From assembly GCA_963817345.1 (NCBI GenBank), contig CAWFNV010000003.1:1405437-1445436 (forward strand): 40,000 bases of DNA, read 5' to 3'. The DNA comes from an uncultured Solirubrobacterales bacterium (GTDB lineage Bacteria > Actinomycetota > Thermoleophilia > Solirubrobacterales > Solirubrobacteraceae). The translations under genes were made by a program, and so were the position numbers. The notes beneath the pieces were generated by a model. The model was not told where the DNA came from and made no database searches. It saw only the letters and a program-made list of their open reading frames with translations. Positions 7,996 through 22,807 of the stretch are shown here, in pieces; the stretch's first letter is position 1; every line of letters starts with the position of its first letter.

Positions 7996-8877
7996 ATGGC
8001 TGACCCCATGCCGACGGAGGCGGAGCGGTCCCGCTCGCCGAGCCCCGGATGGCCGCCGTGGACGGCGCCGCTCGCGCTGTTCGGAGGGGTCGTACTGGCT
8101 GCGGTGGGCGCAGTTGTGATTGACATCCCGGCGCTTGTCCTGGGGGTGAAGATCTCGAGCTCGCACACGCCACCTGGGCTGACGATCGCCGACACGGTGG
8201 TACAGGACATCGGCTTCGTGCTCGCGGCTGTGTATTGCGCACGCATCGGTGGACGGGCGGTGCGCTCGTGGCAGTTCGGCCTGCGCCCTCCAGCTGCAGG
8301 CTGGCGGTCTGCCATTGGCATGATCCTGACGCTGCTGGTCGCCTTCATCGTCCTCAGCGTCGTGTGGTCGGGAATCGTGCACCCCGAAAAAGAGAAGACG
8401 CTCGAACAGCTAGGATCCAACGAAGGCGCCGTGCTGCTGGTGCTCAGCGCCGCGTTGACATGCGTGGTGGCGCCTATGTGCGAGGAGTTCCTGTTTCGCG
8501 GCTACATGTTCACGGCGCTGCGCAACTGGAGGGGGACGCTGCCGGCGGCAGTGATCACTGGGCTGGTGTTCGGCGGCGTGCATGCCGAGTCGGCGCCCGT
8601 CCTCGACCTCGTTCCGCTTGCCCTGCTCGGCTTTGGCCTGTGCCTGCTGTACCGCTACACGGGCTCGCTGTATCCGGGCATCGCGGCGCACTCACTGAAC
8701 AACTCAATCGCGTTCGCAAGCCTCGAGGGCTGGGGCTGGCAAACACCCGTGTTGATCGTTGGCGCGCTGACCGGGATCGCTGTCATCGTGCTTGCGTGCA
8801 AGCGCATCGGTTTGATCACGCCCGAGCTATTGCCGCTCATGCCCAAGGCGTACGCCGTCGGCACAGGGACGTCCTAA
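7996..8877 (+). CDS. CPBP (CAAX/Abi) family intramembrane glutamic endopeptidase
   Basis: ORF 7996..8877. It is multi-TM with family motifs CEEFLFRGY (EExxxR), FGGVH (FxxxH) and HSLNN (HxxxN). Confidence 0.8.
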   Translation: MADPMPTEAERSRSPSPGWPPWTAPLALFGGVVLAAVGAVVIDIPALVLGVKISSSHTPPGLTIADTVVQDIGFVLAAVYCARIGGRAVRSWQFGLRPPAAGWRSAIGMILTLLVAFIVLSVVWSGIVHPEKEKTLEQLGSNEGAVLLVLSAALTCVVAPMCEEFLFRGYMFTALRNWRGTLPAAVITGLVFGGVHAESAPVLDLVPLALLGFGLCLLYRYTGSLYPGIAAHSLNNSIAFASLEGWGWQTPVLIVGALTGIAVIVLACKRIGLITPELLPLMPKAYAVGTGTS

Positions 8878-9909: not shown

Positions 9910-9981
9910 GCCCTCGTAGTCCAATGGATAAGACGACCGCCTCCTAAGCGGTAGATCCAGGTTCGACTCCCGGCGGGGGCA
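9910..9981 (+). tRNA. tRNA-Arg (anticodon CCU)
   Basis: Manual fold. Acceptor GCCCTCG/CGGGGGC (one G-U pair); D arm GTCC-AATGGATA-AGAC; anticodon stem ACCGC/GCGGT with loop CTCCTAA (anticodon CCT); variable loop AGAT; T arm CCAGG-TTCGACT-CCCGG (one A-C mismatch); discriminator A. CCA is not encoded. It aligns position by position with E. coli argW as I remember it. Confidence 0.85.
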
Positions 9982-9991
9982 CTGCAGCGCG

Positions 9992-10084
9992 ATCATTTCG
10001 ATCTTCCACAAGTCCGAGCATTACTACGAGGTCGTAGACGGCCAGCAGCGCCTGCGTACGTCAGCGACGCTGATGGGACATGTA
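9992..10084 (+). pseudogene. 5'-truncated remnant of a ParB-fold DGQQR-motif gene (DUF262-, DndB- or DpdB-like)
   Basis: The frame-2 translation immediately after the tRNA reads IISIFHKSEHYYEVVDGQQRLRTSATLMGHV. It has no upstream start, since the frame runs open into the tRNA, and it decays into an AT-rich tract. YExxDGQQRLxT is the hallmark block of DUF262/DGQHR proteins. Confidence 0.4.
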
Positions 10085-10260
10085 TTTTTTCTACTTCGTA
10101 TTACCATAGTTACACCAAGTTTTATTTTTATATCGACCCCCCGCCCTTTGCCCAAACACCGCCCGTGGGCCCCAAGTACCCGTTGTGGGCGCCGTCAGGA
10201 CGCCGGCAAGCACCGGACGGGCCTTACGTAACGGACATACGGCGTAGTAGCCTCTCCAGC

Positions 10261-10812
10261 ATGGGAGTGCTCCAAGAGCTGGCGGCTGATCTCGATGTCG
10301 AGGAGCGCACGTTGCGTAGGGCTGCCTCTCAGGGCACCTTGCGAGCCACCCGGATCGGACCGCGGCGGCTACGGCTTGCGTCAGGCGAGCGCGAGTATCT
10401 CCAGGCTCATTGGTCGCTGCTCTCCTGGCTTCGCCGGGCGCTGCGTACCGAGCCTGGCGTTCGTCTGGCCGTCCTCTATGGCTCGCTGGCGCGGGGCGAC
10501 GAGGACGCCGACTCGGATCTCGACCTGCTGTTCTCGTTTGCCGACGATCGTCCCTCGGCGGGCGTCGAGTTGGCTGTCCGCTTGCAACGAGTCAGCGGCC
10601 GTCAGATTGACATAGCCGACCTGCGACGAGTTGAGGTCCGGGCTCCGCTTCTCCTGGACCGGGTCCTTGACGAGGGCCGTGTCCTGGTGGACCGAGATGG
10701 GCAGTGGTGTCTGCTGCGTGAGCGCCACGACGCGATCCGCGCGCGCGCTAGTCGTGATTACCGCCGCCAGATGACCGGTGCAGCCCGCGCGATCGAAGAG
10801 CTGACTCGGTGA
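10261..10812 (+). CDS. HTH plus minimal nucleotidyltransferase (MNT-type) protein, putative antitoxin
   Basis: Within ORF 10165..10812; ATG 10261 (MGVLQELAADL). The N-terminal HTH is EERTLRRAASQGTLRATRIGPRRLRL. The NTase signature is LYGSLARGDEDADSDLDLL (GS-x9-DxD). Confidence 0.7.
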   Translation: MGVLQELAADLDVEERTLRRAASQGTLRATRIGPRRLRLASGEREYLQAHWSLLSWLRRALRTEPGVRLAVLYGSLARGDEDADSDLDLLFSFADDRPSAGVELAVRLQRVSGRQIDIADLRRVEVRAPLLLDRVLDEGRVLVDRDGQWCLLRERHDAIRARASRDYRRQMTGAARAIEELTR

Positions 10813-11342
10813 ACGACTCGGCGCCTTCGAGGATCGAACCTCACATTCTCAAGGCCGAGCAGGCTCGGCTGGCGCGCTTCTTCCAGAGCATCAACAAGCA
10901 CCGCAAGGCCATCGACCTGGCGATCGAGGAGGACTTCGGCGGCGCGCTCGACCCGGTCGAATGGAGAAGCGCCTTCGAGTCCTCAGAGCCCCGCGATGCG
11001 AACCGCACAATGGTCGTCACTGGCGATCACTCGGCCATGCTCAACGCCTATGTCGAGATCCTCAAGGCCAGCGCCGGCGCCCGTCTGATTGGCCTACTCC
11101 CGCACCGTCGCCCACACGCCAGCCAAGTATTCGATGCGCTTGTCGCAGACGGTGGGCTGGGCAAAGAGCAGGCGGCGCTGCTGGACGAGCTCTACGTCCT
11201 CGAGGGCCGACTGGAGCACGCCTCACCGGACGTCGATGCCGAGGAGGTTCGCGCTGCTGTCGAGCGACTCCGCCAAGCACTCCCGGATTTGATCGAGAGC
11301 ACCCACACCTGGCTGCGCCGCCACGGCGTCGAGCTTCGGTAA
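10809..11342 (+). CDS. Cognate partner of the NTase, possible HEPN-like toxin (assignment weak)
   Basis: ORF 10809..11342. Its GTG start overlaps the upstream stop (GTGA), indicating coupling. The protein is helical, and the only HEPN-like element is ARLIGLLPH (R-x6-H). No family firmly recognised. Confidence 0.4.
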   Translation: MNDSAPSRIEPHILKAEQARLARFFQSINKHRKAIDLAIEEDFGGALDPVEWRSAFESSEPRDANRTMVVTGDHSAMLNAYVEILKASAGARLIGLLPHRRPHASQVFDALVADGGLGKEQAALLDELYVLEGRLEHASPDVDAEEVRAAVERLRQALPDLIESTHTWLRRHGVELR

Positions 11343-11348
11343 AGATCT

Positions 11349-11371
11349 CCCGCCAGTGCAGCCCTGGCGGG
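11349..11371. terminator. GC-rich hairpin between convergent genes (possible bidirectional terminator)
   Basis: cccgccag-tgcagcc-ctggcggg forms an 8-bp perfect stem with a 7-nt loop. It lies 7 nt after the stop at 11342 and 22 nt from the MFS stop at 11393. There is no clear U-tract. Confidence 0.5.
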
Positions 11372-11392
11372 GCAGGGCTTGAATAGGCAGCC

Positions 11393-12835
11393 TCAGGTGG
11401 GGGCGTACCCTGCCCGGTCGCTCAACTGCTCTCCACACCGTTGCGCGGTGTGCTGTGCCCATTGCCCAGTGGTTGCTACGCCAATTGCGAGTACGAGCGC
11501 ACCGCAACCTGCGATCAGCCACCACGCCGGGTGGCTCGCCGATGCGAGCTGCGTTCCGATGCCGCTCCCGACGCTCGCGCCGAGAATAGATCCGATCACC
11601 GCCACCCCGAGTGCCGCGCCGACCTGCCTGCTCGTTGACGCGATCGCGGCGGCGACGCCAGCCTGGTTGTTGGGCATGCCCGACACAGCCGTGTAGGTGA
11701 TCGGCGGGTTGACCCAGCCGAAGCCGATGCCGAAGACGGCGTACATCGCGAGCAGCAGCGCCAGCGGCGTCGTGGGCGTTAGCGCTGTCAACACCAGCGC
11801 GCTCGCGACCATGAAGCTGCCGGCGATGCACAGCGGGAGACGAGGCCCACGGCGGCTCAGCACCCGCCCCGACAACGGGCTGCAAATGAGCGCCGCCGCA
11901 GCCATCGGCAGCGTGCAGAGCCCGGCCTGCAGCGCGGAATAGCCGCGGACGTCCTGCAGGTAGAGAGTGTTGATCAGCAGAAACCCGCTAAACCCGGCGA
12001 ACGCGCTGATTGCGATCAGTGTCGCGCCGGAGAACGGTGCGCTGCGGAAGAAGCGCAGATCGATCAGCGGGTCCACTCGGCGTGGCTCGTACAGCACTAG
12101 CGCCACGAGCGCGAGCACCGACAGCGCGAACGTGCCGATCGTCTGTGCCGAGGGCCAGCCGGCGGACGGTCCGTCGATGATCGCGTATGTCAGCGACGCG
12201 AGCGCCACGATCACGAGCACCTGGCCGACGGGATCGATCCGCCGCGGGCGCGGCGCGCGCGACTCGGGCACGAACAGTGCCGTCAGGACGACCGCCGCCA
12301 GCCCGATCGGCACGTTGATCCAGAAGATCGCGCGCCAGTCGATCGCGACCAGCGCACCGCCCACGACCGGACCGAGGCCGAGGCTGATGCCCACCACCGC
12401 TCCCCACGCGCCGATCGCCCGGGCGCGCTCGCGCGGCTCGGTGAACACGTTCGTGATGATCGACATCGCCACCGGGTTCAGCATCGAGCCGCCGACGCCC
12501 TGCAGCGCGCGCGCTGCGATCAGCCAGCCGAGCGTCGGCGCGAAGCTGCATAGCAGCGACCCACCGACGAATACCAGCAGCCCCACCTGGAAGGTGCGCC
12601 GCCGCCCCAGGCGGTCGGCCGTCGAGCCGGACAGCAGCAGCAGGCTTGCCAGGACGATCACATACGCGTCGATCGTCCACTGCAAACCCGACAGCGACGC
12701 GTGCAGGTCGCGATGGATCGACGGCAGCGCGACGTTCACGATCGTGCTGTCCATCGCCACGATCAGCAGGCTCATGCAGCAGATCGCGAGGATCACCAGC
12801 CGCCGGCGGTCGCTGAGCTGCGGTGTGTCGTTCAC
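11393..12835 (-). CDS. MFS transporter, DHA2 (14-TMS drug:H+ antiporter, EmrB/QacA-like) type
   Basis: ORF 11393..12904; I prefer GTG 12835 (VNDTPQLSDRRRLVILAICCMSLLIVAMDSTIVNVALPSI). Typical DHA2 blocks are present (LSGSTADRLGRRRTF, many TM helices). Host-like high G+C. Confidence 0.85.
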   Translation of the reverse strand: MNDTPQLSDRRRLVILAICCMSLLIVAMDSTIVNVALPSIHRDLHASLSGLQWTIDAYVIVLASLLLLSGSTADRLGRRRTFQVGLLVFVGGSLLCSFAPTLGWLIAARALQGVGGSMLNPVAMSIITNVFTEPRERARAIGAWGAVVGISLGLGPVVGGALVAIDWRAIFWINVPIGLAAVVLTALFVPESRAPRPRRIDPVGQVLVIVALASLTYAIIDGPSAGWPSAQTIGTFALSVLALVALVLYEPRRVDPLIDLRFFRSAPFSGATLIAISAFAGFSGFLLINTLYLQDVRGYSALQAGLCTLPMAAAALICSPLSGRVLSRRGPRLPLCIAGSFMVASALVLTALTPTTPLALLLAMYAVFGIGFGWVNPPITYTAVSGMPNNQAGVAAAIASTSRQVGAALGVAVIGSILGASVGSGIGTQLASASHPAWWLIAGCGALVLAIGVATTGQWAQHTAQRCGEQLSDRAGYAPT

Positions 12836-12880
12836 CTCGATAGTTCTAGCGTCATGACCACAGTTCGCGATCTGTCCGCA

Positions 12881-12920
12881 CCATGGGAGACCATGACTGG
12901 CCATGACAGATCATGAACAC
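12881..12920 (+). repeat. Four tandem 10-bp YCATG-phased direct repeats (candidate operator array)
   Basis: ccatgggaga / ccatgactgg / ccatgacaga / tcatgaacac occupy exactly 12881, 12891, 12901 and 12911. A fifth tcatgacca sits at 12852. The array lies between the divergent MFS and HTH-queC genes. Confidence 0.6.
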
Positions 12921-12962
12921 CAAGAGAAGGACAGCTTTGCTACACAGGAGGAAGGCGTGGAT

Positions 12963-13856
12963 ATGCTCTCAGTGCGGCGTGTCGCTAAGCACCTCGGCAT
13001 CTCGGAAAGCGGCGTCTATCGTCTCATAGACGCCGGTGACCTGTCCAAGCTGAAGGTGGGCACTCGTACCGTGTTTGAGCCAGCGGAGGTTGAGCGATAT
13101 ATCGCTCGATGTCGCGCGGCGTCTCGCACTGAGCAAGAAAGCAACTGGTCCGGGGAAGGACGCAGGGCCGTCGTCTTGCTGTCAGGCGGCCTCGACTCGG
13201 CCACCGTCTTGGCAATCGCTCAGAACCAGGGCTACGAGGCATACGCGATCTCCTTCCGCTACGGCCAGCGTCATGCAATCGAGCTTGATGCGGCCCGTGC
13301 GGTCGCGAGAGCCGCTGGGATACAGCCTCCTGTAGTCACAGAGATCAACCTTGGGATCTTTGGTGGATCTGCCCTTACGGCAGATATCGTGGTGCCGAAG
13401 CACGACTCAGTCGCAGAACTCGGAGAGGACATCCCATCGACCTACGTGCCGGCTCGAAACACGATCTTCCTCTCCTGCGCTTTCGGATACGCAGAGACCC
13501 TTGAGGCCGACGACATTTTTATCGGCGTAAACGCACTCGACTACAGCGGCTACCCCGACTGTCGCCCTGAGTACATCAATCACATCGAAGGCACTTTCAA
13601 TGTTGCTTCCAAGCGCACCGTGGAAGGCCATAGACTCCGTATCCACACTCCGCTGATCGACATCACAAAGGGCGAGACCGTCCGTCGCGGAATCGAGCTC
13701 GGGGTCGACTACTCACTCACGCGCTCCTGCTATGACCCAGCGCTTGCGGGCGAGGCATGCGGGCATTGCGACTCTTGCCTGCTGAGACTGCGTGCGTTCG
13801 CCGAAAATGACCTTGAGGACCCGATCTCCTACCAAGGCCAGAAGCTGGCGGCCTAG
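12963..13856 (+). CDS. queC: 7-cyano-7-deazaguanine (preQ0) synthase fused to an N-terminal excisionase/MerR-type HTH domain
   Basis: ORF 12903..13856. I prefer ATG 12963, which is preceded by aggaggaagg and avoids the CATG repeat array. The HTH is [47 protein letters not shown]. The QueC core has [11 protein letters not shown] (PP-loop), YVPARNTIF and the Zn motif [10 protein letters not shown]. Confidence 0.85.
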
Positions 13857-13858
13857 TT

Positions 13859-14620
13859 GTGCTCGCTTCGGCACCATGCTTGAGCGACTCGAGCGCTTTG
13901 GACGATGCGACTTTCCCCGTGGTCGAGATCTTTGGCCCCACAGTTCAGGGAGAGGGTCCAGAGGCGGGTCGTCCGGCGTACTTCGTGCGCTTCGGTGGGT
14001 GCGACTATCGCTGTAGTTGGTGTGACTCGATGCACGCAGTCGAGCCAGGCCTTGTGCGTGCTGCAGAGCGTCTCAGCGCGACCGATGTGATCGCTCGGCT
14101 GCGGGATAGACCCTCGGGCCCCGATCTCGTGGTGCTCAGCGGAGGCAATCCGGCTCTATTGGAGCTAGGTCAACTCGTAGAAGAGTTGCAGCGCGAGGGC
14201 AGGCAGGTCGCCGTCGAGACTCAAGGGAGCGTGTGGCGGGACTGGCTTGGCCGTGTAGACAGTCTTGTCATTTCGCCAAAGGGCCCGTCGTCGGGCATGG
14301 TCAACAGCAAGCATGCCAAGCAATTCCGAGCTTTTATGGGCAAGGCGTGTTCTGCCGGAGCATCTCTAGCACTGAAGATCGTCGTTTTTGATGGCGAAGA
14401 TCTCGACTGGGCTCGGCAGACCGCTGGCGATTACTCCGAGATCCCTTTGTATCTGTCCGCAGGCACCGACGTGGACCTCTCCGAGGAGCAGACCATCAAT
14501 CGTCTTCGTGACCGCTACCGCTGGCTGTGCGAAGCAGTCTCCACTAATGCTGATCTTCGCCATGCACGAGTGCTCCCACAGCTGCACGTGATCGCCTGGG
14601 GAACGGCACTGGGGGTCTGA
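13859..14620 (+). CDS. queE: 7-carboxy-7-deazaguanine synthase (radical SAM)
   Basis: ORF 13859..14620 (GTG start). It has [11 protein letters not shown] and the radical-SAM cluster [10 protein letters not shown]. It begins 3 nt after the queC stop. Confidence 0.85.
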
Positions 14621-14621
14621 C

Positions 14622-14990
14622 ATGGAGCTCTACAAGGAATTCACTTTCGAGGCGGCTCACCGTCTACCCAATGTTGCACCAGAGCACAAGTGCGCCCGCC
14701 TGCACGGTCACTCCTACCGTGTGATCATTCACATAAGCGGAGAGGTCGACCCGCAAACCGGCATGGTCATGGACTTTGCCGACATCAAGGCCGCATTCAA
14801 GCCGATCGTTGCAGGGCAACTGGATCACTACTACTTGAATGAGGTAGAGGGCCTAGAGAATCCAACCTCGGAGAACCTCGCACAGTGGATCTGGCAAAGG
14901 CTTCAGCCTCTCTTGCCGCTGCTTTCAGCGGTGGAGGTCAGGGAGACGTGTTCCTCGGGGGTGCTCTACAAGGGCGAGCGGGAGCGATGA
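14622..14990 (+). CDS. queD: 6-carboxy-5,6,7,8-tetrahydropterin synthase
   Basis: 122-aa ORF: [10 protein letters not shown]...[11 protein letters not shown]...[10 protein letters not shown]. This is the typical QueD/PTPS His-triad layout. Confidence 0.9.
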
Positions 14991-15808
14991 GCCTGCTGGC
15001 AGATAAGACGCTTCCAGATGTCCAGGGCGGCAGAGACGAACGTGGCGTGGCGCTCAACGATGTCGGGATCTCGGGCCTGCGCTACCCAATCACCGCCGAA
15101 TGTGCTGATGGCAGCAGCCAACAGACAATCTGCGAGGCGCAACTCACCGTCGCATTGGCCGCTCAGGCTCGGGGCACCCACATGAGCCGATTCGTCGAGG
15201 CTTTGCATGAGCAACACGACTCGCATGCAGTTTCCCCGGCAAGCACCCTGAGGATGGCACGAGAACTCGCGAGTCGTCTCGATACTGACGAAGCCGCAAT
15301 CAATCTCAGCTTTCCCTTGTTCATCCAGCGCAAGGCTCCGGTCACCGAGCATACGGCCCTACTGGGTATCGACTGCACGCTCAGCGCGCGTGCCGGGAAC
15401 TGCGGAGTGAGCCTACAGATTGGTGCCCGTGTCCCAGTCACGAGTCTCTGTCCCTGCTCCAAGGAGATCGCTGACTACAGCGCCCATTCTCAGCGCGGTT
15501 ACGTGACGATAGACGCGCTGGATGGCTGCTGGGCTAAGGGAGGCGACGGGATATGGCCAGAGGAGTTGCTTACCGTCTGTGATCAGGCAGCCTCGGCTCC
15601 GATCTATCCACTACTCAAGCGTCCCGATGAGCGTCACGTGACGATGCTTGCTTACGACCGTCCCGCGTTTGTCGAGGACCTGGCGCGCGAAGTCGCGACC
15701 GCACTACAAGCAGACGAGCGGATTGCGGGCTTTGACCTCGAGGTCGTCAACCAAGAGAGCATCCATGATCATCAAGCACTGGCACGATTGCAATGGAGGC
15801 GCTCGTGA
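14987..15808 (+). CDS. folE2: GTP cyclohydrolase I type 2 (GCYH-IB, FolE2)
   Basis: Within ORF 14885..15808. ATG 14987 overlaps the queD stop (ATGA). Motifs ARGTHMSRF and [21 protein letters not shown] are characteristic of FolE2/MptA. Confidence 0.8.
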
Positions 15809-16480
15809 GTCGGGAGATCCTCATTGTGAGTTCGTGTACGGCTACTAAGGTCCAGACGGCCGATGGGCAACCGCGTTGGGCCGAGTCGCTGTATGCCGGC
15901 CAGCAGCATGTGCGCCTTATGCGAGGTATAGATCGATACCGGCAGGCTGGAAAGCCAGCAGGTGAGTTGAGCTTTCGCATCCTGTCTGCATTTCATGGGC
16001 TCGTTCGGCCACGTAAGTCGGTCTCCTCGTACGATCACTCGTTTTCCGGTCTACCGACAGCTTGCTATCCAGCGCCAAGGCCGCGAAAAGAACGTACCCC
16101 AAGACATCCGCAAGCTCCTAAACAAGCCATTTGACCTTGGGGTGCTGATGCTTGGGGATCCGTACTTGAGAGCCTGCGACCTTGACTGCGACGTCAAACT
16201 CGGTGGTCCGACGATCGTATTCTGCTCCCCGAAAGTCGCGAGGTGGCTCCCCGATCTTGACGGGTCGCGGCTCGTACAGTTGACCAATCACGAGGCACGC
16301 CGATTCTCCTGTGGGCTGATAGCGCTCAAGGGCGAGCTAGGCGGCCGTATCCTTATCGCGCTCTCCCAGCAGTCGGCGATTCTGAGCACGTTGATAAGCC
16401 CCGACATTGATTTGCTGGATTGGCTGGAGGCAATGCCACCGACCTCCTTGCCCGAACATCAACTGCTAGCAGCCGGGTAA
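15805..16480 (+). CDS. YaaA/DUF328-like protein, candidate DpdC; reading frame interrupted (net +1) within about 16042-16060
   Basis: ORFs 15793..16134 (frame 1) and 15995..16480 (frame 2) read as one protein. GTG 15805 overlaps the folE2 stop (GTGA). ILIVSSCTATK, ILSAFHGLVRPRKSVSSYDHSF and SCGLIALKGELGGRILI parallel the E. coli YaaA blocks [29 protein letters not shown] and YAKKARGLMSRFII, which I quote from memory. Removing one T from the T4 run at 16042-16045 restores ...YDHSFPVYRQLAIQ.... Confidence 0.5.
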
Positions 16481-17742
16481 TGGACTTCTACTTCCCTGAT
16501 AGTCAGGATCAAATTGATCCCAGATATTGCTTTGACGTTGAGGAGCATCCACCTCACCACGTTCGCCAGCGCGATGACTACTACGCGCACGAGGCGCACT
16601 TTCAGCCGCCATACACAGGCATGCTCGTATCAAAGACAATGGTCGATGGCTATCAAGACACAGGACGCTACACGCCTGCTCAACGTCATCGGCTCTACCG
16701 CCTAGGCGTCCATGACTTCTTTCGTCTGCCAGTCGGGATGAACACACTGGGTGACTGTGGCGCATTCTCATATGTCGCCGAGCAAGATCCACCCATCACC
16801 GTCGATGAAGTCATCGACTTCTACGAGGGTTGCGGGTTCGATCTCGGTATCTCCGTCGACCACGTGATTCTCGACTACCGTGCAGACGCCGAGGAGTCTG
16901 GCGAGATCGACCCTCGATGGATAGAACGACAGGAGACCACCCTTCGATGCGCTGGCGAGTTTCTAGAGCGCCACGCTGAACGTGGTTGCAGCTTTACACC
17001 TGTCGGGGCAGCCCAGGGCTGGAGTCCTCAGTCCTATGCTTACTGTGTAGAGGAGCTCCAGCGCCTTGGCTACAAGCGGATTGCCCTAGGGGGAATGGTC
17101 CCGCTAAAGACCATGCAAATCATGGCTTGCCTCAAGGCTGTTCACAAGGTGCGTAACAAGAATACGCAGTTCCACCTACTTGGCGTAACCAGGACCGAGT
17201 ATGTAGTGAACTTCGCAGCTTTTGGGGTCACTAGCTTTGATTCGACCTCTCCGTTTCGCCAAGCGTTCAAGGACGACAAGGACAACTACTGGACGAAGGA
17301 CCACAAGTACGTGGCGCTTCGTATTCCCCCAAGCGAAGGCAATGCCAAACTTCAAGCTCTTATCCGTGCTGGACAACTCGACCAACGCGAGGTACGCAGC
17401 CTCGAGGTCGCGTGTCTTACCGCCTTGCGGGCATATGATCGTGGCGACAGGACGCTAATGGGAGCAATCACCGCTCTTCGGGACTATGAGCAACTGGTTA
17501 GTCCAGAAAAGGACCACACACAGGCCTACCAGCGAATGCTCGAGGATGCTCCCTGGCAGCGCTGCCCATGTGCGGTTTGTAAAACCGACGGCATTGAGGT
17601 AGCCATTTTCAGGGGAACTGAGCGCAACAAGCGTCGCGGCTTTCACAACCTGTGGGTCTTTAATCAGACATTGCAAGGATACATCGCCGGAGGCGAGTCA
17701 GTTAATGCTATGACAGAGGAGATAATCGGTGAACGCGTCTGA
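16480..17742 (+). CDS. dpdA: DpdA-type TGT-family transglycosylase (predicted DNA-guanine to preQ0 exchange)
   Basis: Within ORF 16420..17742. ATG 16480 overlaps the upstream TAA (TAATG). The TIM-barrel TGT-like core includes GISVDHV, ALGGMVP and TSFDSTSP. The Zn motif is CPCAVCK, followed by FRGTERNKRRGFHN, as I remember for the DpdA/TgtA5 family. Confidence 0.75.
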   Translation: MDFYFPDSQDQIDPRYCFDVEEHPPHHVRQRDDYYAHEAHFQPPYTGMLVSKTMVDGYQDTGRYTPAQRHRLYRLGVHDFFRLPVGMNTLGDCGAFSYVAEQDPPITVDEVIDFYEGCGFDLGISVDHVILDYRADAEESGEIDPRWIERQETTLRCAGEFLERHAERGCSFTPVGAAQGWSPQSYAYCVEELQRLGYKRIALGGMVPLKTMQIMACLKAVHKVRNKNTQFHLLGVTRTEYVVNFAAFGVTSFDSTSPFRQAFKDDKDNYWTKDHKYVALRIPPSEGNAKLQALIRAGQLDQREVRSLEVACLTALRAYDRGDRTLMGAITALRDYEQLVSPEKDHTQAYQRMLEDAPWQRCPCAVCKTDGIEVAIFRGTERNKRRGFHNLWVFNQTLQGYIAGGESVNAMTEEIIGERV

Positions 17743-18871
17743 GTTGCGTCTGCCGGCACTTGAGGTTCGGCAAGGTGATCGGCGCCTGTATCAGTTCGCA
17801 TTGGACGGCAAGCAATTGGCCGATGTAACCACAGTGTCGCGGATCAATCGTAACGACGCTGGTCACATTGGCGGGTACCAGCGCCCCGAGGCCCTCAAGC
17901 ACGTCAAGGCTATACGCACCTACCTAGAGAGCCCAGCGGCCCTGATGGCAAATGCTCTAGTGGTTGCATTTGACACACGGGTCCGCTTTGAGCCCGCAGG
18001 CAGACGTTCCCCCAAGGCCTACTCAACGATCGGGACGCTGATCCTACCCGTGGTGCAAGGCGCGGCCGACGAGGACAAGCTGGGCTGGGTTGTAGATGGC
18101 CAGCAGCGGTCCGCTGCATTGCGTGACGCTGACCTTGATCGATTTCCCGTGCCAGTAGTTGCCTTCATCGCCGATGATCTCCGAGAGCAGCGAGCCCAGT
18201 TCATCCTCGTCAACAACACCAAGCCGTTGCCAAAGGGGCTGATTCACGAGCTGCTGCCGTCTACAGACGGCGAGTTGCCCGCCGCACTTGCGCGCAAGCG
18301 CTACCCGGCGAAGCTTCTGGAACTGCTCAACTATCTCCCCGGTTCACCGATGGAGCGCGCTATTCGCACTCCCACGATGCCGGAGGGGCGAATCAAGGAC
18401 AACTCAGTATTGAAGATGCTGGAGTGCTCGATCAGCGATGGTGCGCTCTACCGCTTTCGAGATCCCGAGACCGGAGAAGGCGACACGAGCAAGATGATCG
18501 AGACACTCTGCAACTTCTGGACCGCTGTCAGAGAAACGTGGCCAGACGCGTGGGATTTGTCGCCTCGCAAGTCGCGCCTCATACACGGCGTGGGCATCAG
18601 CGCGCTTGGCTTCATCATGGACGACATCACCGAACGGCGATCGAGACGACAGGCCGTCCCAAGCACCGAGACCTACAAGGAAGACCTACAGTACTTGGAT
18701 TCCGTCTGCGCCTGGACCGAGGGCTATTGGGACCTTGGCCTCGGGCAAAAGCGTCGATGGGATGGACTACAAAACACCCCCAAGGACATCGCTCTACTTG
18801 CCGACTTCTTGGTTCGCCACTACCGCGCTTGTGCGGATGGGGCGGAGCGTACCAAGCAAGAAGCTGCATAA
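17729..18871 (+). CDS. dpdB: DGQHR-domain ParB-like protein (DpdB-type), DGQQR variant
   Basis: ORF 17729..18871 (GTG start, 14-nt overlap with dpdA). It has YQRPEALKHVKAIRTYL, WVVDGQQRSAAL and VVAFIADDLREQRAQFILVNNTKPLPKGL, which is the DndB/DGQHR QxFxxxN block. Confidence 0.75.
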   Translation: MNASELRLPALEVRQGDRRLYQFALDGKQLADVTTVSRINRNDAGHIGGYQRPEALKHVKAIRTYLESPAALMANALVVAFDTRVRFEPAGRRSPKAYSTIGTLILPVVQGAADEDKLGWVVDGQQRSAALRDADLDRFPVPVVAFIADDLREQRAQFILVNNTKPLPKGLIHELLPSTDGELPAALARKRYPAKLLELLNYLPGSPMERAIRTPTMPEGRIKDNSVLKMLECSISDGALYRFRDPETGEGDTSKMIETLCNFWTAVRETWPDAWDLSPRKSRLIHGVGISALGFIMDDITERRSRRQAVPSTETYKEDLQYLDSVCAWTEGYWDLGLGQKRRWDGLQNTPKDIALLADFLVRHYRACADGAERTKQEAA

Positions 18872-18878
18872 CCGCTAC

Positions 18879-19109
18879 TTATGCATCTACATCCAGCGCG
18901 CTGAGAATATGATCGGCTTGGATCTCGAAGCTGGCACGTTCTACCAGTGGAGTACGACGCCACTGTTCGATCAGCACGGCGCGAAGCCACAGTTGATCGA
19001 GTCGTCGTCGCTCGCCTAGACTTCCACGTGCCTTCAAGAGATACTCGCTCAGCGACAGACCGTCCGTAGACGACATTCCAAATCTAATCGGCGGCGGGCA
19101 GCGACTCAT
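18879..19109 (-). CDS. Small hypothetical protein at the convergence point (weak call)
   Basis: ORF 18879..19109, 76 aa (an internal ATG gives MSSTDGLSLSEYLL...). Codon usage resembles the island genes. No family recognised. Confidence 0.3.
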   Translation of the reverse strand: MSRCPPPIRFGMSSTDGLSLSEYLLKARGSLGERRRLDQLWLRAVLIEQWRRTPLVERASFEIQADHILSALDVDA

Positions 19110-19147
19110 ATCTCAGTACTCTCGCCTGCAACGGAGAGGACGCCGTC

Positions 19148-20008
19148 CTATTCCACGTTCAGCCCAGCCTTTTGGACGAGGTAGTGGTACGCGGCATCGC
19201 GTGTCTGGCGCGTGCTGCTCAGGCTCCAACCGTTTGGTTTGCCGGTCTGGTCGAACTGCTGGATCAGGATCTTGCCATGCCAGTCCGGGTTGCCTTCGAC
19301 GAGGTTTCCATCCTCGTCGTAGTGGTCGCGCGCCATCAGCGTCACGGTGACGCTCTTACCCTCACGCCTGGTCTTTACGTTGCCTGCCAACTTGGCGAGT
19401 GCATCCTTCCACTCGTTCTCGGAGCGCCAGTCCGTGCCGCTCATCGCGTACTTCTGCCAGAGCTCAAACGCAAGCCTGAATATCGGGAAGTACATGATGT
19501 TGGACATCGCGAAGGATCTCTCGCGAAGCAACTGCCGTGACTTACCCGATGCGGTTGGCTTGAACTCGGGGTAGAGCGAGGCCCACTCGGTGTAGAAGTG
19601 TGAGAAGAAGTTGACCAAGTCGGCGTATTTGGCCTTGTCTTTCTGTACCTCGAGGAGCTGCTTCTGGAACGGCTTGATCGCAGAGTCTAGGGTCGCGAGC
19701 GTAGTGAGCTTTCGCGAAGCCTTTGCGATCGTCGACGCGCGGATCTCGATCTCCTCTCGGTCGAAGATCGGACATTGTTTGATCAACGCCATGACGAACT
19801 TCCTCGACGCCGTCTTGTTCGGGTGCATGTCGATCGCCGCACCCACAGTGGGCCGCTTGCCCTCGACGTTGTACTCGTCAAACAAGCGTCCCTCGAACAT
19901 CGGTGTGATGTTGAAAATCGTCACGAACATGCAGGCGTTTTCTTCATCGAAGGGGTCGAACTTAGCGAGCAGCTTCAGAAGCAAGAGCGCGTTGAACGGC
20001 CTGACCAT
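19148..20008 (-). CDS. C-terminal portion of a second DndB/DGQHR-like protein
   Basis: ORF 19148..20008. VTIFNITPMFEGRLFDEYNVEGKRPTVGAAIDM matches the DndB-type block (xxF...QxFxDxN...kPt) also seen in dpdB here. A long helical C-terminal region follows. Confidence 0.6.
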   Translation of the reverse strand: MVRPFNALLLLKLLAKFDPFDEENACMFVTIFNITPMFEGRLFDEYNVEGKRPTVGAAIDMHPNKTASRKFVMALIKQCPIFDREEIEIRASTIAKASRKLTTLATLDSAIKPFQKQLLEVQKDKAKYADLVNFFSHFYTEWASLYPEFKPTASGKSRQLLRERSFAMSNIMYFPIFRLAFELWQKYAMSGTDWRSENEWKDALAKLAGNVKTRREGKSVTVTLMARDHYDEDGNLVEGNPDWHGKILIQQFDQTGKPNGWSLSSTRQTRDAAYHYLVQKAGLNVE

Positions 20009-20507
20009 CGGGCGCGATCTCCACCTCGTCAGGGATCTTGGTCGTGTCGTCCTTCCACTCGTTGAGGAGGTAGTGCAGGTAGTGGCGGTGGGCGCTGTCG
20101 GGGATCGTGAGCGTGGAGTGCACAGTGAGCCTGCGCTTCGCAGCGTCGTAGGTGATCTCCTGTCTACCGTTCTTGCGAGCGTTCCAGGTGATGTCAGGGT
20201 TGAAGAACTCGTGGCTCTCTTCAGGGTCTTTGTTGGAGCTGTCGAGGCCTAGTAGGAACTTTGCCGCCATCGACGCAGCACGCTTGGGGTCGATGTCGAG
20301 TTCGACGTTCGTGACGTCCAGTAGCGTCTTCTCGTCGAACGGCTCCTTGGCACCACGCTGGTACTTTGGGGCGTACTTCAGGTTGCCGTCGATCAAGCCT
20401 TGGGCTAGATCACCGGAGGAGATCTTTCCCTTGTAGATCGGCCCGACGCCTGGCCGGCAGATGCGGTCAACGTCCTCGATAACAATGTTCTTGACAAACT
20501 TAGGCAT
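19962..20507 (-). CDS. N-terminal ParB-fold portion of the second DndB/DGQHR-like protein (DSAHR variant)
   Basis: Within ORF 19962..20621. ATG 20507 is preceded by aggaga. YKGKISSGDLAQGLIDGNLKYAPKYQRG...KRAASMAAKFL...LTIPDSAHRHYLHYL follows the DndB/ParB N-terminal domain layout. It overlaps the next ORF by 47 nt in a frame offset equivalent to +1 nt. Confidence 0.6.
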   Translation of the reverse strand: MPKFVKNIVIEDVDRICRPGVGPIYKGKISSGDLAQGLIDGNLKYAPKYQRGAKEPFDEKTLLDVTNVELDIDPKRAASMAAKFLLGLDSSNKDPEESHEFFNPDITWNARKNGRQEITYDAAKRRLTVHSTLTIPDSAHRHYLHYLLNEWKDDTTKIPDEVEIAPDGQAVQRALASEAAR

Positions 20508-20536
20508 GTGGTATCTCCTGGTGAATTGGTTGTCGG

Positions 20537-21001
20537 TTATCCGGCGATCCGGGCAAGCATCGGCGGACCAGACCGCCCCGTCGCGAGTTGATAGCGGCGC
20601 GACAGTTGCGCAAAGCCCCAAACGTCGATGCGCTGTTGGTGGCGACTGATACGGTTATGCGCTGCCGCGACACGCTCGGCGACGCGCCGCTCGATGACCT
20701 CAGCGGACAATCCCTCGCGAAGTGCCCCGCGCCGGATCTCCGCGTCGTTGATAATGAGTATGCCTAGAGCTGGGCTGATCTCGGCGAGCGTGTCGATGCT
20801 CCCTCGGAGGGCCTTTGGCCCCTCGCTGACCGCGACCTCAAGGGCGACCGCAGGGACCTCCGGCAGTGCGTACCCGTCACCGGGCAGCAGCCACACGCCG
20901 TCGGTGGGCAGCTCCCGTGACCACATCAGGCGTGTCCTGTAGCCGAGCGCCTTGCCGATCTCCAAGAACATGTATTGCGCGTCAGCGTGTCCGGGTCGCA
21001 C
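20537..21001 (-). CDS. Hypothetical protein with a restriction-endonuclease-like motif pattern
   Basis: ORF 20537..21001, 154 aa. HADAQYMFLEIGKALGYRT...TDGVWLL...PAVALEVAVSEGPKALRGSIDTLAEI resembles the small H..E..G / D.vW / aFEVe..t nuclease-like module I remember attached to R-M and defence proteins. This is not a firm family call. Confidence 0.35.
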   Translation of the reverse strand: MRPGHADAQYMFLEIGKALGYRTRLMWSRELPTDGVWLLPGDGYALPEVPAVALEVAVSEGPKALRGSIDTLAEISPALGILIINDAEIRRGALREGLSAEVIERRVAERVAAAHNRISRHQQRIDVWGFAQLSRRYQLATGRSGPPMLARIAG

Positions 21002-21261
21002 TTTGTAATCCTTCGGTCACAGTTTTGGCACATATCTACGAATATCCTGCGAAAGGCTAGCGTACTATCTGAGCGATTGCAACGAAGAGTCGTAGTAATT
21101 CGTCGTCTCTGTCCGAATGAGCCCCGCAATTTCCGGCCTTCTGCCCAGATGTGCGTCGAAGCGTTCCTGCGTGCTGCCCGGTTGCTGCACTGCCGACGAG
21201 GCTGGCATGTCCTTTCTAATTCGGGCTTGATTCTAGAAAGTCATGATGCTAGGCTGATGGC

Positions 21262-21699
21262 ATGGGTAAGCGTGACGCACAATCTGTGACGCTGGCGCTG
21301 ATCTCGCTGGACGACGCCCGTGATGCACTGGCTAGCGGCAGCCAGGACGCGGCGATACGCGCCATGGAGGAAGCTCACCAGACGCTCGAGGGGATCAGAC
21401 ATGCCGCTGGCGTACCGGTCGCGCGTGCCGCGCGACGGCTCGGCGTGTCTGTGCCAACCGTGCGCTCATGGATAGAGCGTGGCGCGCTGCGCGCGATCAA
21501 GGGCTCGAGCCCCGTGGAGATTCAACCGGAGAGTCTGCGAAGCGTGAGCCGGGCGCTAGACGAGCTGCGTGAGCGCGGCCAGGACCGCGAGTGGCTCCAG
21601 GCGCTCGTCGACTATCTCGATGACCGCGAGGCACGCCAAAGCCCCGCACTCAAAGAGGGCCTACAGCAGCTCAAGCGCGGGGAACTCGAACCGGCCTGA
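21262..21699 (+). CDS. Excisionase/MerR-type HTH protein, antitoxin-like
   Basis: ORF 21262..21699. The HTH is VPVARAARRLGVSVPTVRSWIERGALRAIKG. Its stop overlaps the next start (TGATG). Confidence 0.55.
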   Translation: MGKRDAQSVTLALISLDDARDALASGSQDAAIRAMEEAHQTLEGIRHAAGVPVARAARRLGVSVPTVRSWIERGALRAIKGSSPVEIQPESLRSVSRALDELRERGQDREWLQALVDYLDDREARQSPALKEGLQQLKRGELEPA

Positions 21700-22070
21700 T
21701 GGCCTTCGAAGTCCTCCGCACACCGCAGGTGCGCGACGCGGTGGCGCAGCAAATGAGCCGAACCGAGCGAGCCAGCTACGAGGCGGCCCGCGACGAGCTC
21801 GGCGGACGCGGATGCGTCGCCGGCGGCTACAAGCTCGCCGCGACCGACGGAGGTGACTATCCGCTGTGCGCCCGCCACCTCGCAAACGCGTGGCGCATGT
21901 ACACCGCATACCCAGATGACGCGCGCGTTGTGATCGTTGCCCTCGACCAGCTAGGCGGTGCGCTGCTTGGCGCGATCGCGCAAGGCCTAAAAGGAGTGTC
22001 TCACCAGGGCGCGCCGCCGCTGGCCTGCAGCTCATTGCTCGGCACGCGGAACATGTTGTCGGCTCGCTGA
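21699..22070 (+). CDS. RelE/ParE-like toxin candidate
   Basis: ORF 21699..22070. GGYKLAATDGGDYPLCARHLANAWRMYTAYPDDARVVIVALD follows the RelE/ParE pattern kl.g....r.r.g.yRi.Y...d..v.v.i. The C-terminal about 35 aa are uninformative. Confidence 0.4.
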   Translation: MAFEVLRTPQVRDAVAQQMSRTERASYEAARDELGGRGCVAGGYKLAATDGGDYPLCARHLANAWRMYTAYPDDARVVIVALDQLGGALLGAIAQGLKGVSHQGAPPLACSSLLGTRNMLSAR

Positions 22071-22147
22071 CGATGCTCAGCATGTAGATACATAAGAGCA
22101 CATAAAACGAAATTTGGAATACACAACCCCGAGGCCCAAACGACCTC

Positions 22148-22807
22148 TCACCCCTCCTCGCCTGCATAAAGCGACTCCTGCGCAAGCTCTCGGCCCTTGC
22201 CGTCGAACAACTTGATCTCGAGCAGGTCGTGGCGGTAGTCATCGGGTGCGATCAGCGTGAAGCGCTCCTCGATCAGCTCGCATTGGTCTACCGCGAGGTC
22301 GGCCAGCTCGGCGGTGACGATCCGCCCGCCGGAGACGAGTGGCCGCCCCCACACGAGCGTCATCGCCGCTGTAGCCCCTGACTCCCCGCGCCATGCGCCG
22401 ATGATCTCCTCGCACAGGTCGAGCTTCCAGTCGGGGTTGCGCTCGGCTGTCTCATCGGTGAAGTCGACGTATGCGGAGAGCTCGCTCGGCTCGCCCTCAT
22501 CGGTCCCCGACAAGAAGCGCACGTAGCCGAACAGCTCGTAGCCGTTGGCTGTGATCGTGGTCCCTGGGACGTACGTGTGTCCATGCCACGTGCGGTCCGG
22601 ATACCACCGAACCTCACTTGGCTCACCGAGATTCTCTCTGTCGCCATCAAGCACCAGACAGGCTGCGAGGAACTCTGCGGTCAGCCGCTCAGCCCAGCGG
22701 CCGTACGGCAGCCCCTCGTGCGGAGGCTCGGCGGCGAACCGGGGTAGGACACGTTCCTCGGGAGGCACGTTCGGCAGACTATGCCTTGCGCAGCCTGGCC
22801 GCGGCAT
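22148..22807 (-). CDS. Hypothetical protein
   Basis: ORF 22148..22807 with host-like G+C and good GC3. No family recognised. The start is uncertain because of the 29-nt overlap with the galT stop. Confidence 0.5.
   Translation of the reverse strand: MPRPGCARHSLPNVPPEERVLPRFAAEPPHEGLPYGRWAERLTAEFLAACLVLDGDRENLGEPSEVRWYPDRTWHGHTYVPGTTITANGYELFGYVRFLSGTDEGEPSELSAYVDFTDETAERNPDWKLDLCEEIIGAWRGESGATAAMTLVWGRPLVSGGRIVTAELADLAVDQCELIEERFTLIAPDDYRHDLLEIKLFDGKGRELAQESLYAGEEG

Follow-up and report, generated by a model that had tools for sequence, protein, structure and literature searches.

The window (the whole 40-kb stretch of DNA analysed) carries a compact Dpd-type island for 7-deazaguanine modification of DNA, in which two adjoining genes, a small one termed c1 and a DndB-family gene, rather probably serve as the functional partner. 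An earlier suggestion, made in a first-pass annotation, that the system was “differently armed” was sensible, given that a conserved pair of genes is found repeatedly next to dpdB. In the proposed mechanism, FolE2, QueD, QueE and QueC would turn GTP into preQ0, DpdA and DpdB would replace guanine by preQ0 at specific positions of the host's own DNA, and hydration of dPreQ0 to dADG may then fall to the DpdC-like protein, these last two steps being modelled on the biochemistry of Salmonella enterica serovar Montevideo. The c1/DndB-family pair, present in place of dpdD-K, would have been inherited with the operon as its functional partner. Most likely the pair is an effector, or a sensor telling marked from unmarked DNA; a DndB-style regulator of modification is less likely. 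The pair may thus replace the usual Dpd restriction genes.

The modification operon

Positions 12963-18871 (+) form a translationally coupled operon of seven genes:

12963..13856 (+): HTH_17-QueC fusion (7-cyano-7-deazaguanine synthase); TIGR00364 199.6 bits vs. cut-off 150, PF12728 (HTH_17) 41.6 bits
13859..14620 (+): QueE (radical-SAM 7-carboxy-7-deazaguanine synthase); TIGR03365 249.5 bits vs. 206
14622..14990 (+): QueD (6-carboxytetrahydropterin synthase); TIGR03367 115 bits vs. 89, PF01242 133 bits
14987..15808 (+): FolE2 (GTP cyclohydrolase IB), 273 aa; NF010200 248.4 bits vs. 215
15805..16480 (+): short DpdC-like gene (DUF6884 type, about 224 aa); hhalign against canonical DpdC
16480..17742 (+): DpdA (predicted DNA-guanine transglycosylase), 420 aa; NF041059 565.3 bits vs. 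200, PADLOC DpdA 562 bits
17729..18871 (+): DpdB (ParB/DGQHR-type ATPase), 380 aa, motif DGQQR; NF041060 473.2 bits vs. 300, PADLOC DpdB 474.6 bits

All seven co-directional genes described in the first-pass annotation were found, and six of them exceeded the curated model cut-offs in profile searches (the DpdC-like gene was the exception). Their stop and start codons mostly overlapped, as had been noted: neighbouring genes were either 1-2 nt apart or overlapped by 1, 4, 4 and 14 nt, the longest overlap being between the end of dpdA and the start of dpdB. The full preQ0 pathway proposed earlier was borne out by the scores of FolE2, QueD, QueE and QueC, all above their equivalog cut-offs, and the operon encodes the entire route from GTP to preQ0. 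The 273-aa gene call for FolE2 was taken from sister contigs. The start of queC is probably the ATG at 12963, preceded by AGGAGG; position 12903, where the open reading frame opens, was considered a less likely start. The HTH-QueC fusion was also present in loci L031 and L035, and no HTH_17 match was recorded for the QueC of L042.

The identification of the TGT-like protein as DpdA was strengthened by its residues: D92, F96, D127, L234, D254 and F263 correspond to D95, F99, D130, L236, D256 and F265 of S. Montevideo DpdA, the catalytic aspartate pair (D92 and D254, equivalent to Asp95 and Asp256) being among those retained. A CxCxxC motif was located at residue 362. The position of S. Montevideo His181 was occupied by Gln, as in 19 of the 25 DpdAs sampled. 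Assignment to the tRNA enzymes Tgt or ArcTGT was rejected (TIGR00430, 17.6 bits vs. 306.75; TIGR00432, 24.7 bits vs. 350). The following gene, earlier called dpdB from its DGQ(Q)R motif, was a genuine DpdB. The seven compact-type DpdAs with intact open reading frames grouped in one neighbour-joining clade, and the compact type, which comes from Solirubrobacterales-like soil bacteria, is a DpdA clade of its own.

The fifth gene had been labelled “YaaA-like”, a label that has to be replaced: it is a remote, C-terminally shortened homologue of DpdC. Its family (more than 200 homologues) aligned with canonical DpdC with an hhalign probability of 98.2% (E 2.8e-14, 188 columns), and the invariant motifs CTxxK, LY.G and SAG.GL were common to both families. 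The C-terminal ~80 residues of DpdC were missing, and the PADLOC DpdC models did not recognise the gene (14 bits).

A probable two-gene partner beside dpdB

Downstream of dpdB, a three-gene “convergent operon of unknown function” had been described. There were really two genes, since ORFs 19962-20621 and 19148-20008 were halves of a single one:

19148..20507 (-): DndB-family partner, 452 aa after removal of an extra base at 19995; Pfam DndB 36.1 bits vs. 29.1, in the C-terminal half
20537..21001 (-): small partner c1, 154 aa; always directly upstream of the DndB-family gene

The DndB-family protein was collinear with an intact 437-aa protein of L019 and showed the conserved motifs YQRG and PD(S/T)AHRH. 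Its AlphaFold model (pLDDT 92.6) gave no significant fold match in the PDB, and no profile similarity to DpdB was detected. For c1, 41 homologues were collected, in which D34, E55, E60 and K63 were invariant. There was no Pfam match, and fold matches were weak, none of them significant; the predicted model (pLDDT 85.9) had an alpha-beta-beta-beta-alpha-beta topology, which would be nuclease-like and is that of the core of the PD-(D/E)XK nuclease superfamily, to which c1 may belong.

The pair adjoined dpdB in 6 of 13 informative compact islands (the window, L019, where it lies on the same strand, L031/32, L035, L042 and L058), in differing genomic contexts and in both orientations. The c1 tree was congruent with the DndB-family tree, and the split in both (window and L042 vs. 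L031 and L035) mirrored that of the DpdA tree. The pair was also found with no dpd gene nearby in Mycobacterium asiaticum, one Blastococcus genome and two metagenome contigs, that is, in 4 of 10 distinct contexts, suggesting that it can work, or at least persist, independently of this modification module. Its GC3 was host-like (0.76-0.81 vs. 0.59-0.72 for the dpd operon), a mismatch that hints at separate histories.

These last observations bear on a rather unlikely alternative, namely that the operon is a modification-only (“orphan”) module whose dPreQ0/dADG marks the chromosome against other nucleases or epigenetically, the pair acting independently of it, in defence or as an accessory system, and sharing no more than the defence-island neighbourhood. 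The stand-alone pairs and the divergent GC3 agree with it, as do the compact islands lacking recognisable cargo, the catalogued class of islands without a restriction operon and the defence hot spot that follows tRNA-Arg (the last three described below). Nevertheless, six pairs placed directly beside dpdB amid varied flanks, together with a phylogeny parallel to that of DpdA, exceed what a casual neighbourhood predicts.

A regulatory role of the DndB-family protein, acting on the transcription or the activity of the dpd operon, with c1 as an accessory and without any restriction arm, is in turn improbable. Membership of the Pfam family DndB, the repression of phosphorothioate modification by Salmonella DndB (PMC4507180) and the position of the pair next to the operon it would control are in keeping with regulation, but the stand-alone pairs have no dpd operon as a target, and the obligatory small partner with its invariant acidic and Lys residues would be left unexplained. 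Moreover, the protein was rejected as a DndB equivalog: it scored 18.5 bits vs. a cut-off of 328 with the NCBIfam model TIGR03233, passing the broad Pfam domain alone, and the window had no dnd genes.

Frameshifts, absence of dpdD-K and alternative cargo

Two genes were frameshifted in the window sequence. The DpdC-like gene was split into ORFs 15793-16134 and 15995-16480 by one additional base at about 16059-16062, and the DndB-family gene by the extra base mentioned above. The former was intact in relatives (220-231 aa), as it was in the short-read contig L124 (99.7% DNA identity) and protein P0243, and the latter was uninterrupted in the short-read contigs L039 and L040 and, at 452 aa, in L038; both partner genes were intact in near-identical short-read contigs. 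Since such contigs were intact at both sites, the frameshifts are most likely assembly artefacts.

That the locus derives by decay from a canonical Dpd restriction-modification island, with dpdD-K lost and dpdC and its neighbour now frameshifting away, is thus very improbable. The two lesions would fit such decay, as would the full dpdC-K sets carried by relatives whose DpdA is 50-56% identical. They are countered by short-read contigs that are 99.7-99.85% identical and lack the extra base at either site, by the second long-read contig (L038), which has a different indel at the DpdC-like site, and by the conservation of the compact architecture, with intact open reading frames, across the DpdA clade and the DpdC-like homologues.

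The absence of canonical dpdD-K genes was upheld: tblastn with DpdC-K of the canonical cluster L030 (Enterobacter cloacae pPOL9A) found none in the whole 40 kb, the same search matching just DpdA and DpdB, and none occurred within 10 kb of compact-type relatives, except in L046, where two helicases resembled DpdE and DpdF (28-30% identity). The statement that no helicase follows was correct for the island itself but not for the window, which has a 1009-aa superfamily-2 helicase at 24523-27552, beyond the island boundary and with host-like GC3.

Other cargo accompanied the same DpdA clade: a GHKL ATPase in L001, L002 and L046; a second DpdB (DpdB2) with HerA/AAA/PLD proteins in L020; and UvrD with a PD-(D/E)XK nuclease in L031. 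Three informative compact islands (L047, L049 and L051) had neither the pair nor other recognised cargo. This variety suggests one modification module combined with interchangeable effector modules. Tentatively, the compact Dpd operon could be the marking half of a modular 7-deazaguanine immune family whose reading half is interchangeable: here the reader would be a two-gene module sparing preQ0/ADG-marked DNA and attacking unmarked DNA, and the GHKL ATPase, HerA/AAA/PLD or UvrD/PD-(D/E)XK proteins of the sister islands would do the same job. If so, a small nuclease-like protein and a DndB/ParB-family protein would make up a previously unnamed two-gene reader module.

Island extent and mobility

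The practical extent of the island was given by a block shared with L038 and L041, which contained further genes on both sides of the operon and the pair:

9910..9982 (+): tRNA-Arg (CCT); ARAGORN, Rfam 58.9 bits; left edge of the variable/mobile region
9938..22160: 12.2-kb near-identical block; blastn of L038/L041 against the window
10165..11342 (+): Pol-beta-type nucleotidyltransferase (215 aa) and overlapping 177-aa gene; Pfam Polbeta / NTP_transf_2
11393..12904 (-): MFS transporter; Pfam MFS_1 207.8 bits
21262..22070 (+): HTH protein (145 aa) and overlapping 123-aa gene; Pfam HTH_23/HTH_17, PADLOC mad1 24 bits

The block was 99.8% identical in L038/L041 (21 differing positions, 17 events), divergence began sharply at 22163, and the flanks were ~78-90% identical (about 85-90% on the right, 77.6% at 8047-8874). 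The sister genome L041 had a 4.7-kb GmrSD/RES element inserted at tRNA-Arg, with a 44-nt repeat of the tRNA 3' end on its borders; GmrSD and RES/Xre genes follow the tRNA there. The island thus appears to have been recently exchanged, beside a tRNA-Arg integration hot spot; the view that it was old or fixed in place does not survive this near-identity between differing flanks and its abutment on an integration site.

The lower G+C of the block reported earlier was reproduced (0.56-0.60 across 13-20 kb vs. 0.64-0.73 in the flanks), and the GC3 of the seven operon genes was 0.59-0.72 vs. 0.79-0.87 for host genes. The MFS gene, divergent from the dpd operon and inside the conserved block, had a host-like GC3 (0.86). 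The nucleotidyltransferase and the 177-aa gene, whose product had no family match, formed an accessory pair inside the block. The 145-aa HTH and 123-aa genes lay at its right end; the former also adjoined c1 in L039 and L040.

Comparison with known systems

With the Dpd system of S. Montevideo (reference L030; DpdA 47% and DpdB 46% identical), the window shared the catalytic Asp pair, the base-stacking Phe and the Phe265 equivalent of DpdA, and a DpdC-family gene directly upstream of dpdA. It differed in lacking dpdD, E, F, G, H, I, J and K, in a DpdC homologue that has 18% identity, falls about 60 residues short and has no C-terminal domain, in an operon that itself supplies the complete preQ0 pathway and has QueC fused to an HTH domain, and in the c1/DndB-family neighbours.

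Alternative restriction modules are familiar from phosphorothioate systems, in which DndABCDE is found with DndFGH, PbeABCD or SspE. The resemblance, by analogy only, consists of a conserved modification module, a DndB-family protein and swappable neighbouring effectors; the window, in contrast, would exchange a base rather than introduce backbone sulphur, has no dndA/C/D/E genes and failed the DndB equivalog model.

The novelty claimed earlier has to be reduced: the window does lack dpdD-K, but Dpd islands that have no restriction operon, some of them with dpdC and some not, were already catalogued in the 2025 GATOR-GC survey (PMC12235509), which drew on isolate genera such as Agrobacterium, Archangium and Acidovorax. 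Those islands likewise combine dpdA and dpdB without dpdD-K, often with co-located preQ0 genes and commonly with extra DndB-type genes; the survey, as consulted here, gives gene compositions and names no replacement effector. The window type differs from them in its distinct DpdA clade and recurrent two-gene partner.

A TGT-family enzyme proposed to mark DNA with 7-deazaguanine has also been coupled to non-Dpd effectors in BREX-related systems centred on HerA/FtsK (PMC12839542). In the window, unlike in those systems, DpdA is a separate protein accompanied by DpdB, and HerA, NurA and UvrD are absent. Distant relatives of the DpdC-like gene were located in TGT-containing HerA/FtsK operons, as in L106, which encodes a DUF6884-TGT fusion together with NurA-like, HerA/FtsK, UvrD and PD-(D/E)XK proteins.

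The modification operon

Seven closely packed genes on the + strand (12.9-18.9 kb) made up the modification operon; they are coupled, neighbouring genes lying 1-2 nt apart or overlapping by 1-14 nt. The start of queC is likely the ATG at 12963, with AGGAGG just upstream. Six of the products matched curated models:

12963-18871, + strand, queC-queE-queD-folE2-dpdC-like-dpdA-dpdB
HTH_17-QueC, + strand, TIGR00364, 199.6 bits (cut-off 150)
QueE, + strand, TIGR03365, 249.5 bits (cut-off 206)
QueD, + strand, TIGR03367, 115 bits (cut-off 89)
FolE2, + strand, NF010200, 248.4 bits (cut-off 215)
DpdA, + strand, NF041059, 565.3 bits (cut-off 200); PADLOC DpdA, 562 bits
DpdB, + strand, NF041060, 473.2 bits (cut-off 300); PADLOC DpdB, 475 bits

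All six products, DpdA included, scored above the curated cut-offs, in agreement with the first-pass annotation. Against tRNA-type TGT models DpdA reached only 17-25 bits (cut-offs above 300), and therefore membership of the tRNA-modifying enzymes, the main ground on which its identification as DpdA could have fallen, was not found. Residues were mapped by aligning the window DpdA to that of an Enterobacter cloacae plasmid carrying a canonical dpdC-A-B/D-K cluster, which is numbered identically to the S. Montevideo enzyme. The catalytic motifs were intact: the essential pair Asp95 and Asp256 was kept, together with the equivalents of Phe99, Asp130, Leu236 and Phe265 and the CxCxxC motif. The equivalent of His181 was Gln, as in 19 of the 25 DpdAs sampled. 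The dpd region had a G+C content of 0.56-0.60 (vs. 0.64-0.73 in the flanks), and the GC3 of the operon was 0.59-0.72 (vs. 0.79-0.87 in host genes).

The gene between folE2 and dpdA

The gene that separates folE2 from dpdA had been labelled “YaaA-like”, a label that gave way to DpdC homology when profiles were compared. Pfam DUF6884 matched weakly both the window-type product and the DpdC of the reference cluster, the latter being authentic by PADLOC DpdC (470 bits). In hhalign, a profile of seven DpdC-like orthologues aligned with one of twelve canonical DpdCs over 188 columns (probability 98.2%, E 2.8e-14), and the motifs CTxxK, LY.G and SAG.GL were common to both families. The window-type protein lacked the final ~80 residues of DpdC, and its relatives of 220-230 aa numbered more than 200. 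The profile match, the common motifs and the missing C-terminus argue, at the level of sequence, for a genuine but remote, shortened DpdC homologue.

Apparent frameshifts

A reading of the island as a decaying remnant could draw on two interrupted genes: an extra base near 16060 splits the DpdC-like gene, and an extra T at 19995 splits a DndB-family gene into two ORFs convergent to the dpd operon (19962-20621 and 19148-20008). The convergent operon placed downstream of dpdB by the first-pass annotation does exist, but these two ORFs proved to be halves of one gene. Both extra bases were absent from three short-read (Logan) contigs 99.7-99.85% identical to the window (L039, L040 and L124), and a long-read contig of a sister genome (ENA contig_29034; L038/L041) was in frame at 19995 and carried a different indel at exactly the same spot of the DpdC-like gene; the pseudogene reading was rejected for both genes because of these differences.

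Contig_29034 and the window differed in 17 events, 14 of which lay no more than 3 nt from a GTYRAC, AGCT or CCWGG motif; these motifs cover 8% of the region (binomial P ~3e-13, the motifs having been picked after the data were seen). The discrepancies fell within 11545-21609 (e.g. 14748, 16858, 19734, 19995 and 21609), and at GTYRAC sites the window repeatedly read GTCGAC, against GTCAAC or GTTGAC in the short-read contigs and, usually, in contig_29034. This pattern looks like base-calling error induced by modified bases, probably methylation, though a deazaguanine motif may be another source. Both frameshifts were therefore treated as artefacts and both genes as intact (224 aa for the DpdC-like protein, 452 aa for the DndB-family protein). 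CAGCTG, the target of DpdA in S. Montevideo (PMC10164549), was also considered as the site of the DpdC-like frameshift and was ruled out: the short reads give GACCATTGC at that position.

Absence of canonical restriction genes

By its modification genes the island belongs clearly to the Dpd family. Its restriction half did not qualify for membership. Searching the 40 kb by tblastn with the reference-cluster proteins (DpdC-K included) recovered only DpdA and DpdB, in agreement with the absence of dpdD-K noted at first pass. Among 29 genomic relatives, those with DpdA 50-56% identical carried dpdC plus D/K/J or E/F/G/H, while such genes never lay within 10 kb of the compact queC-queE-queD-folE2-dpdC-like-dpdA-dpdB type. 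This architecture was conserved clade-wide: the seven DpdAs of the compact type whose ORFs are intact grouped as one clade by neighbour joining, in a tree built without support values.

The other genes of the window had host functions, among them a class A PBP with transglycosylase and transpeptidase domains, an AIR-synthase-related (AIRS-domain) protein, a sortase, BirA, HemA, HemC, HemD, cytochrome c assembly proteins, an aldehyde dehydrogenase and MgsA. One further flanking gene was considered as a candidate:

24523-27552, superfamily-2 helicase of 1009 aa (ResIII and Helicase_C)

About 280 N-terminal and 370 C-terminal residues of this protein had no assigned function, and it matched PbeA and type IV restriction enzymes weakly. 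It was rejected as an overlooked DpdE, F or J, since only generic helicase-domain matches were obtained (DpdF, 31 bits over Helicase_C), and as part of the island, its GC3 being host-like and its position in the divergent flank beyond the conserved block. An Rfam scan for RNA elements and riboswitches of the window returned only tRNA, and promoter and terminator scans were at or below chance.

Mobility of the island

A 12.2-kb block including the dpd operon (9938-22160) was 99.8% identical in contig_29034; identity dropped to ~85-90% to the right of 22163 and was 77.6% at 8047-8874. Such a block beside genes differing by 10-20% implies that the island was exchanged recently, by horizontal exchange or recombination, and the earlier suggestion that it may be old or fixed in place was abandoned. 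Features at its borders and inside it were:

9910-9982, tRNA-Arg(CCT), whose 3' part contains the left end of the block
10165-11342, Pol-beta nucleotidyltransferase and overlapping 177-aa protein
21262-22070, HTH protein (weak mad1/excisionase-like matches) and overlapping 123-aa protein

The two protein-coding gene pairs may have a regulatory role or be toxin-antitoxin-like. Between its tRNA and dpd block, the sister genome has a 4.7-kb element that encodes the type IV restriction enzyme GmrSD and the toxin pair RES/Xre and is bordered by 44-nt direct repeats of the tRNA 3' end (L041 4412-4455 and 9129-9172); tRNA-Arg(CCT) is an active integration hot spot. No integrase was found in the window, as already noted at first pass, and the right border had no att repeat matching the tRNA 3' end (up to 3 mismatches permitted); the island is thus integrase-less. 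The search for flanking direct or inverted repeats gave nothing meaningful. An IS (rve) element was inserted further upstream in the sister genome.

The partner pair and alternative cargo

Two genes, both on the strand opposite to dpdB, lay 3' of it:

19148-20507, - strand, DndB-family protein (452 aa)
20537-21001, - strand, c1 (154 aa)

The AlphaFold model of c1 (pLDDT 86) had an alpha-beta-beta-beta-alpha-beta topology; D34, E55, E60 and K63 were invariant, and the family search returned no match. The C-terminal half of the 452-aa protein (model pLDDT 93) matched Pfam DndB (36.1 bits, cut-off 29.1) and carried the motifs YQRG and PD(S/T)AHRH; a DndB-like regulator is a rival reading of its role. 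Fold searches of PDB and BFVD with both models gave nothing significant, the non-significant matches tending to restriction-endonuclease-like folds for c1 and to ParB for the 452-aa protein. Identity of the latter as a DpdB paralogue was rejected (hhalign probability 0.15%).

The pair stood next to dpdB in the window and in L019 (same strand), L031/32, L035, L042 and L058, loci of relatives whose flanks were all different; in L031/32, UvrD and PD-(D/E)XK genes intervened. The c1 and DndB-family trees were congruent, and their deepest dpd-linked split was that of the DpdA tree. The rival reading, that the pair is an unrelated neighbour, has on its side that the pair stands without dpd genes nearby in two metagenome contigs and in the genomes of M. 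asiaticum and a Blastococcus. The GC3 of the pair was host-like (0.76-0.81), its low overall G+C stemming from codon positions 1 and 2, so the pair and the operon, with its lower GC3, may differ in history within this genome. Beside the pair, L058 also encoded a second DndB-domain protein (419 aa, 74 bits) and a RelA/SpoT-domain protein (428 aa) at 15800-18231.

Thirteen compact islands had enough downstream sequence for a census of cargo: six carried the pair, three a GHKL ATPase, one a second DpdB with HerA/AAA/PLD genes, and three no recognisable cargo. The alternatives were:

L001 12434-13849, L002 12410-13930 and L046 13102-13449, convergent to dpdB, GHKL (HATPase_c) protein of 470-506 aa in place of the pair
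L046 1148-6936, upstream of queC, SNF2-type (1076 aa) and DEAD-type (923 aa) helicases, 28-30% identical to DpdE and DpdF
L020 12510-18733, convergent to dpdB, second DpdB (364 bits), 440-aa protein without a family, HerA/mad8-like ATPase, AAA ATPase and a protein with a weak PLD/DpdK-like C-terminus

Proposed mechanism and relation to known systems

By analogy with the S. Montevideo reconstitution (PMC10164549), preQ0 would be made from GTP, DpdA would swap G for preQ0 in DNA, powered by ATP hydrolysis by DpdB, and the DpdC-like protein may turn dPreQ0 into dADG. Our hypothesis is that the pair reads this mark, as effector or sensor.

The GATOR-GC catalogue of 2025 includes Dpd islands without a restriction operon, with dpdC present or absent, equates DpdC with DUF6884 and reports frequent additional DndB-type genes (PMC12235509), and the joining of TGT enzymes to non-Dpd effectors was proposed in 2026 (PMC12839542). 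Apparently new are the delimitation of the compact type as a monophyletic clade, its short form of DpdC, the two-gene partner that recurs in it and the pattern of alternative cargo.

The eight large genes of the Dpd restriction side are the least understood part of Dpd, and to our knowledge no nuclease has been clearly assigned among them. A natural version of nine genes, seven to make and insert the mark and two candidate readers, would be far easier to reconstitute and could reveal how 7-deazaguanine is sensed. In phosphorothioate systems a single modification module goes with many different effector modules, a principle that would then reach base-exchange modifications. If the pair is unrelated, the clade would still provide a clean, self-sufficient dPreQ0/dADG cassette, predicted from its genes, in high-G+C soil bacteria, and the shortened DpdC would remain useful for structure-function work.

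Related architectures

A distant second class lacked DpdB (L106 7124-20536; also L067, L068, L088, L093 and L105). In L106, all on a single strand, queC/E/D/folE2 were followed by a 686-aa fusion of DUF6884 (DpdC-like) and TGT, and then by NurA-like, HerA/FtsK, a 634-aa protein, UvrD and a PD-(D/E)XK nuclease. The TGT-containing HerA-centred systems described in PMC12839542, for which no DpdC homologue was reported, may be the same class. A second DpdB-like gene (~380 aa) was present between dpdC and dpdA in L012 (8874-10007), and an extra DpdB-like gene likewise in L008, L009, L014, L015, L017 and L024, all of them canonical actinobacterial dpd clusters, in agreement with the frequent additional dpdB copies of GATOR-GC (PMC12235509).
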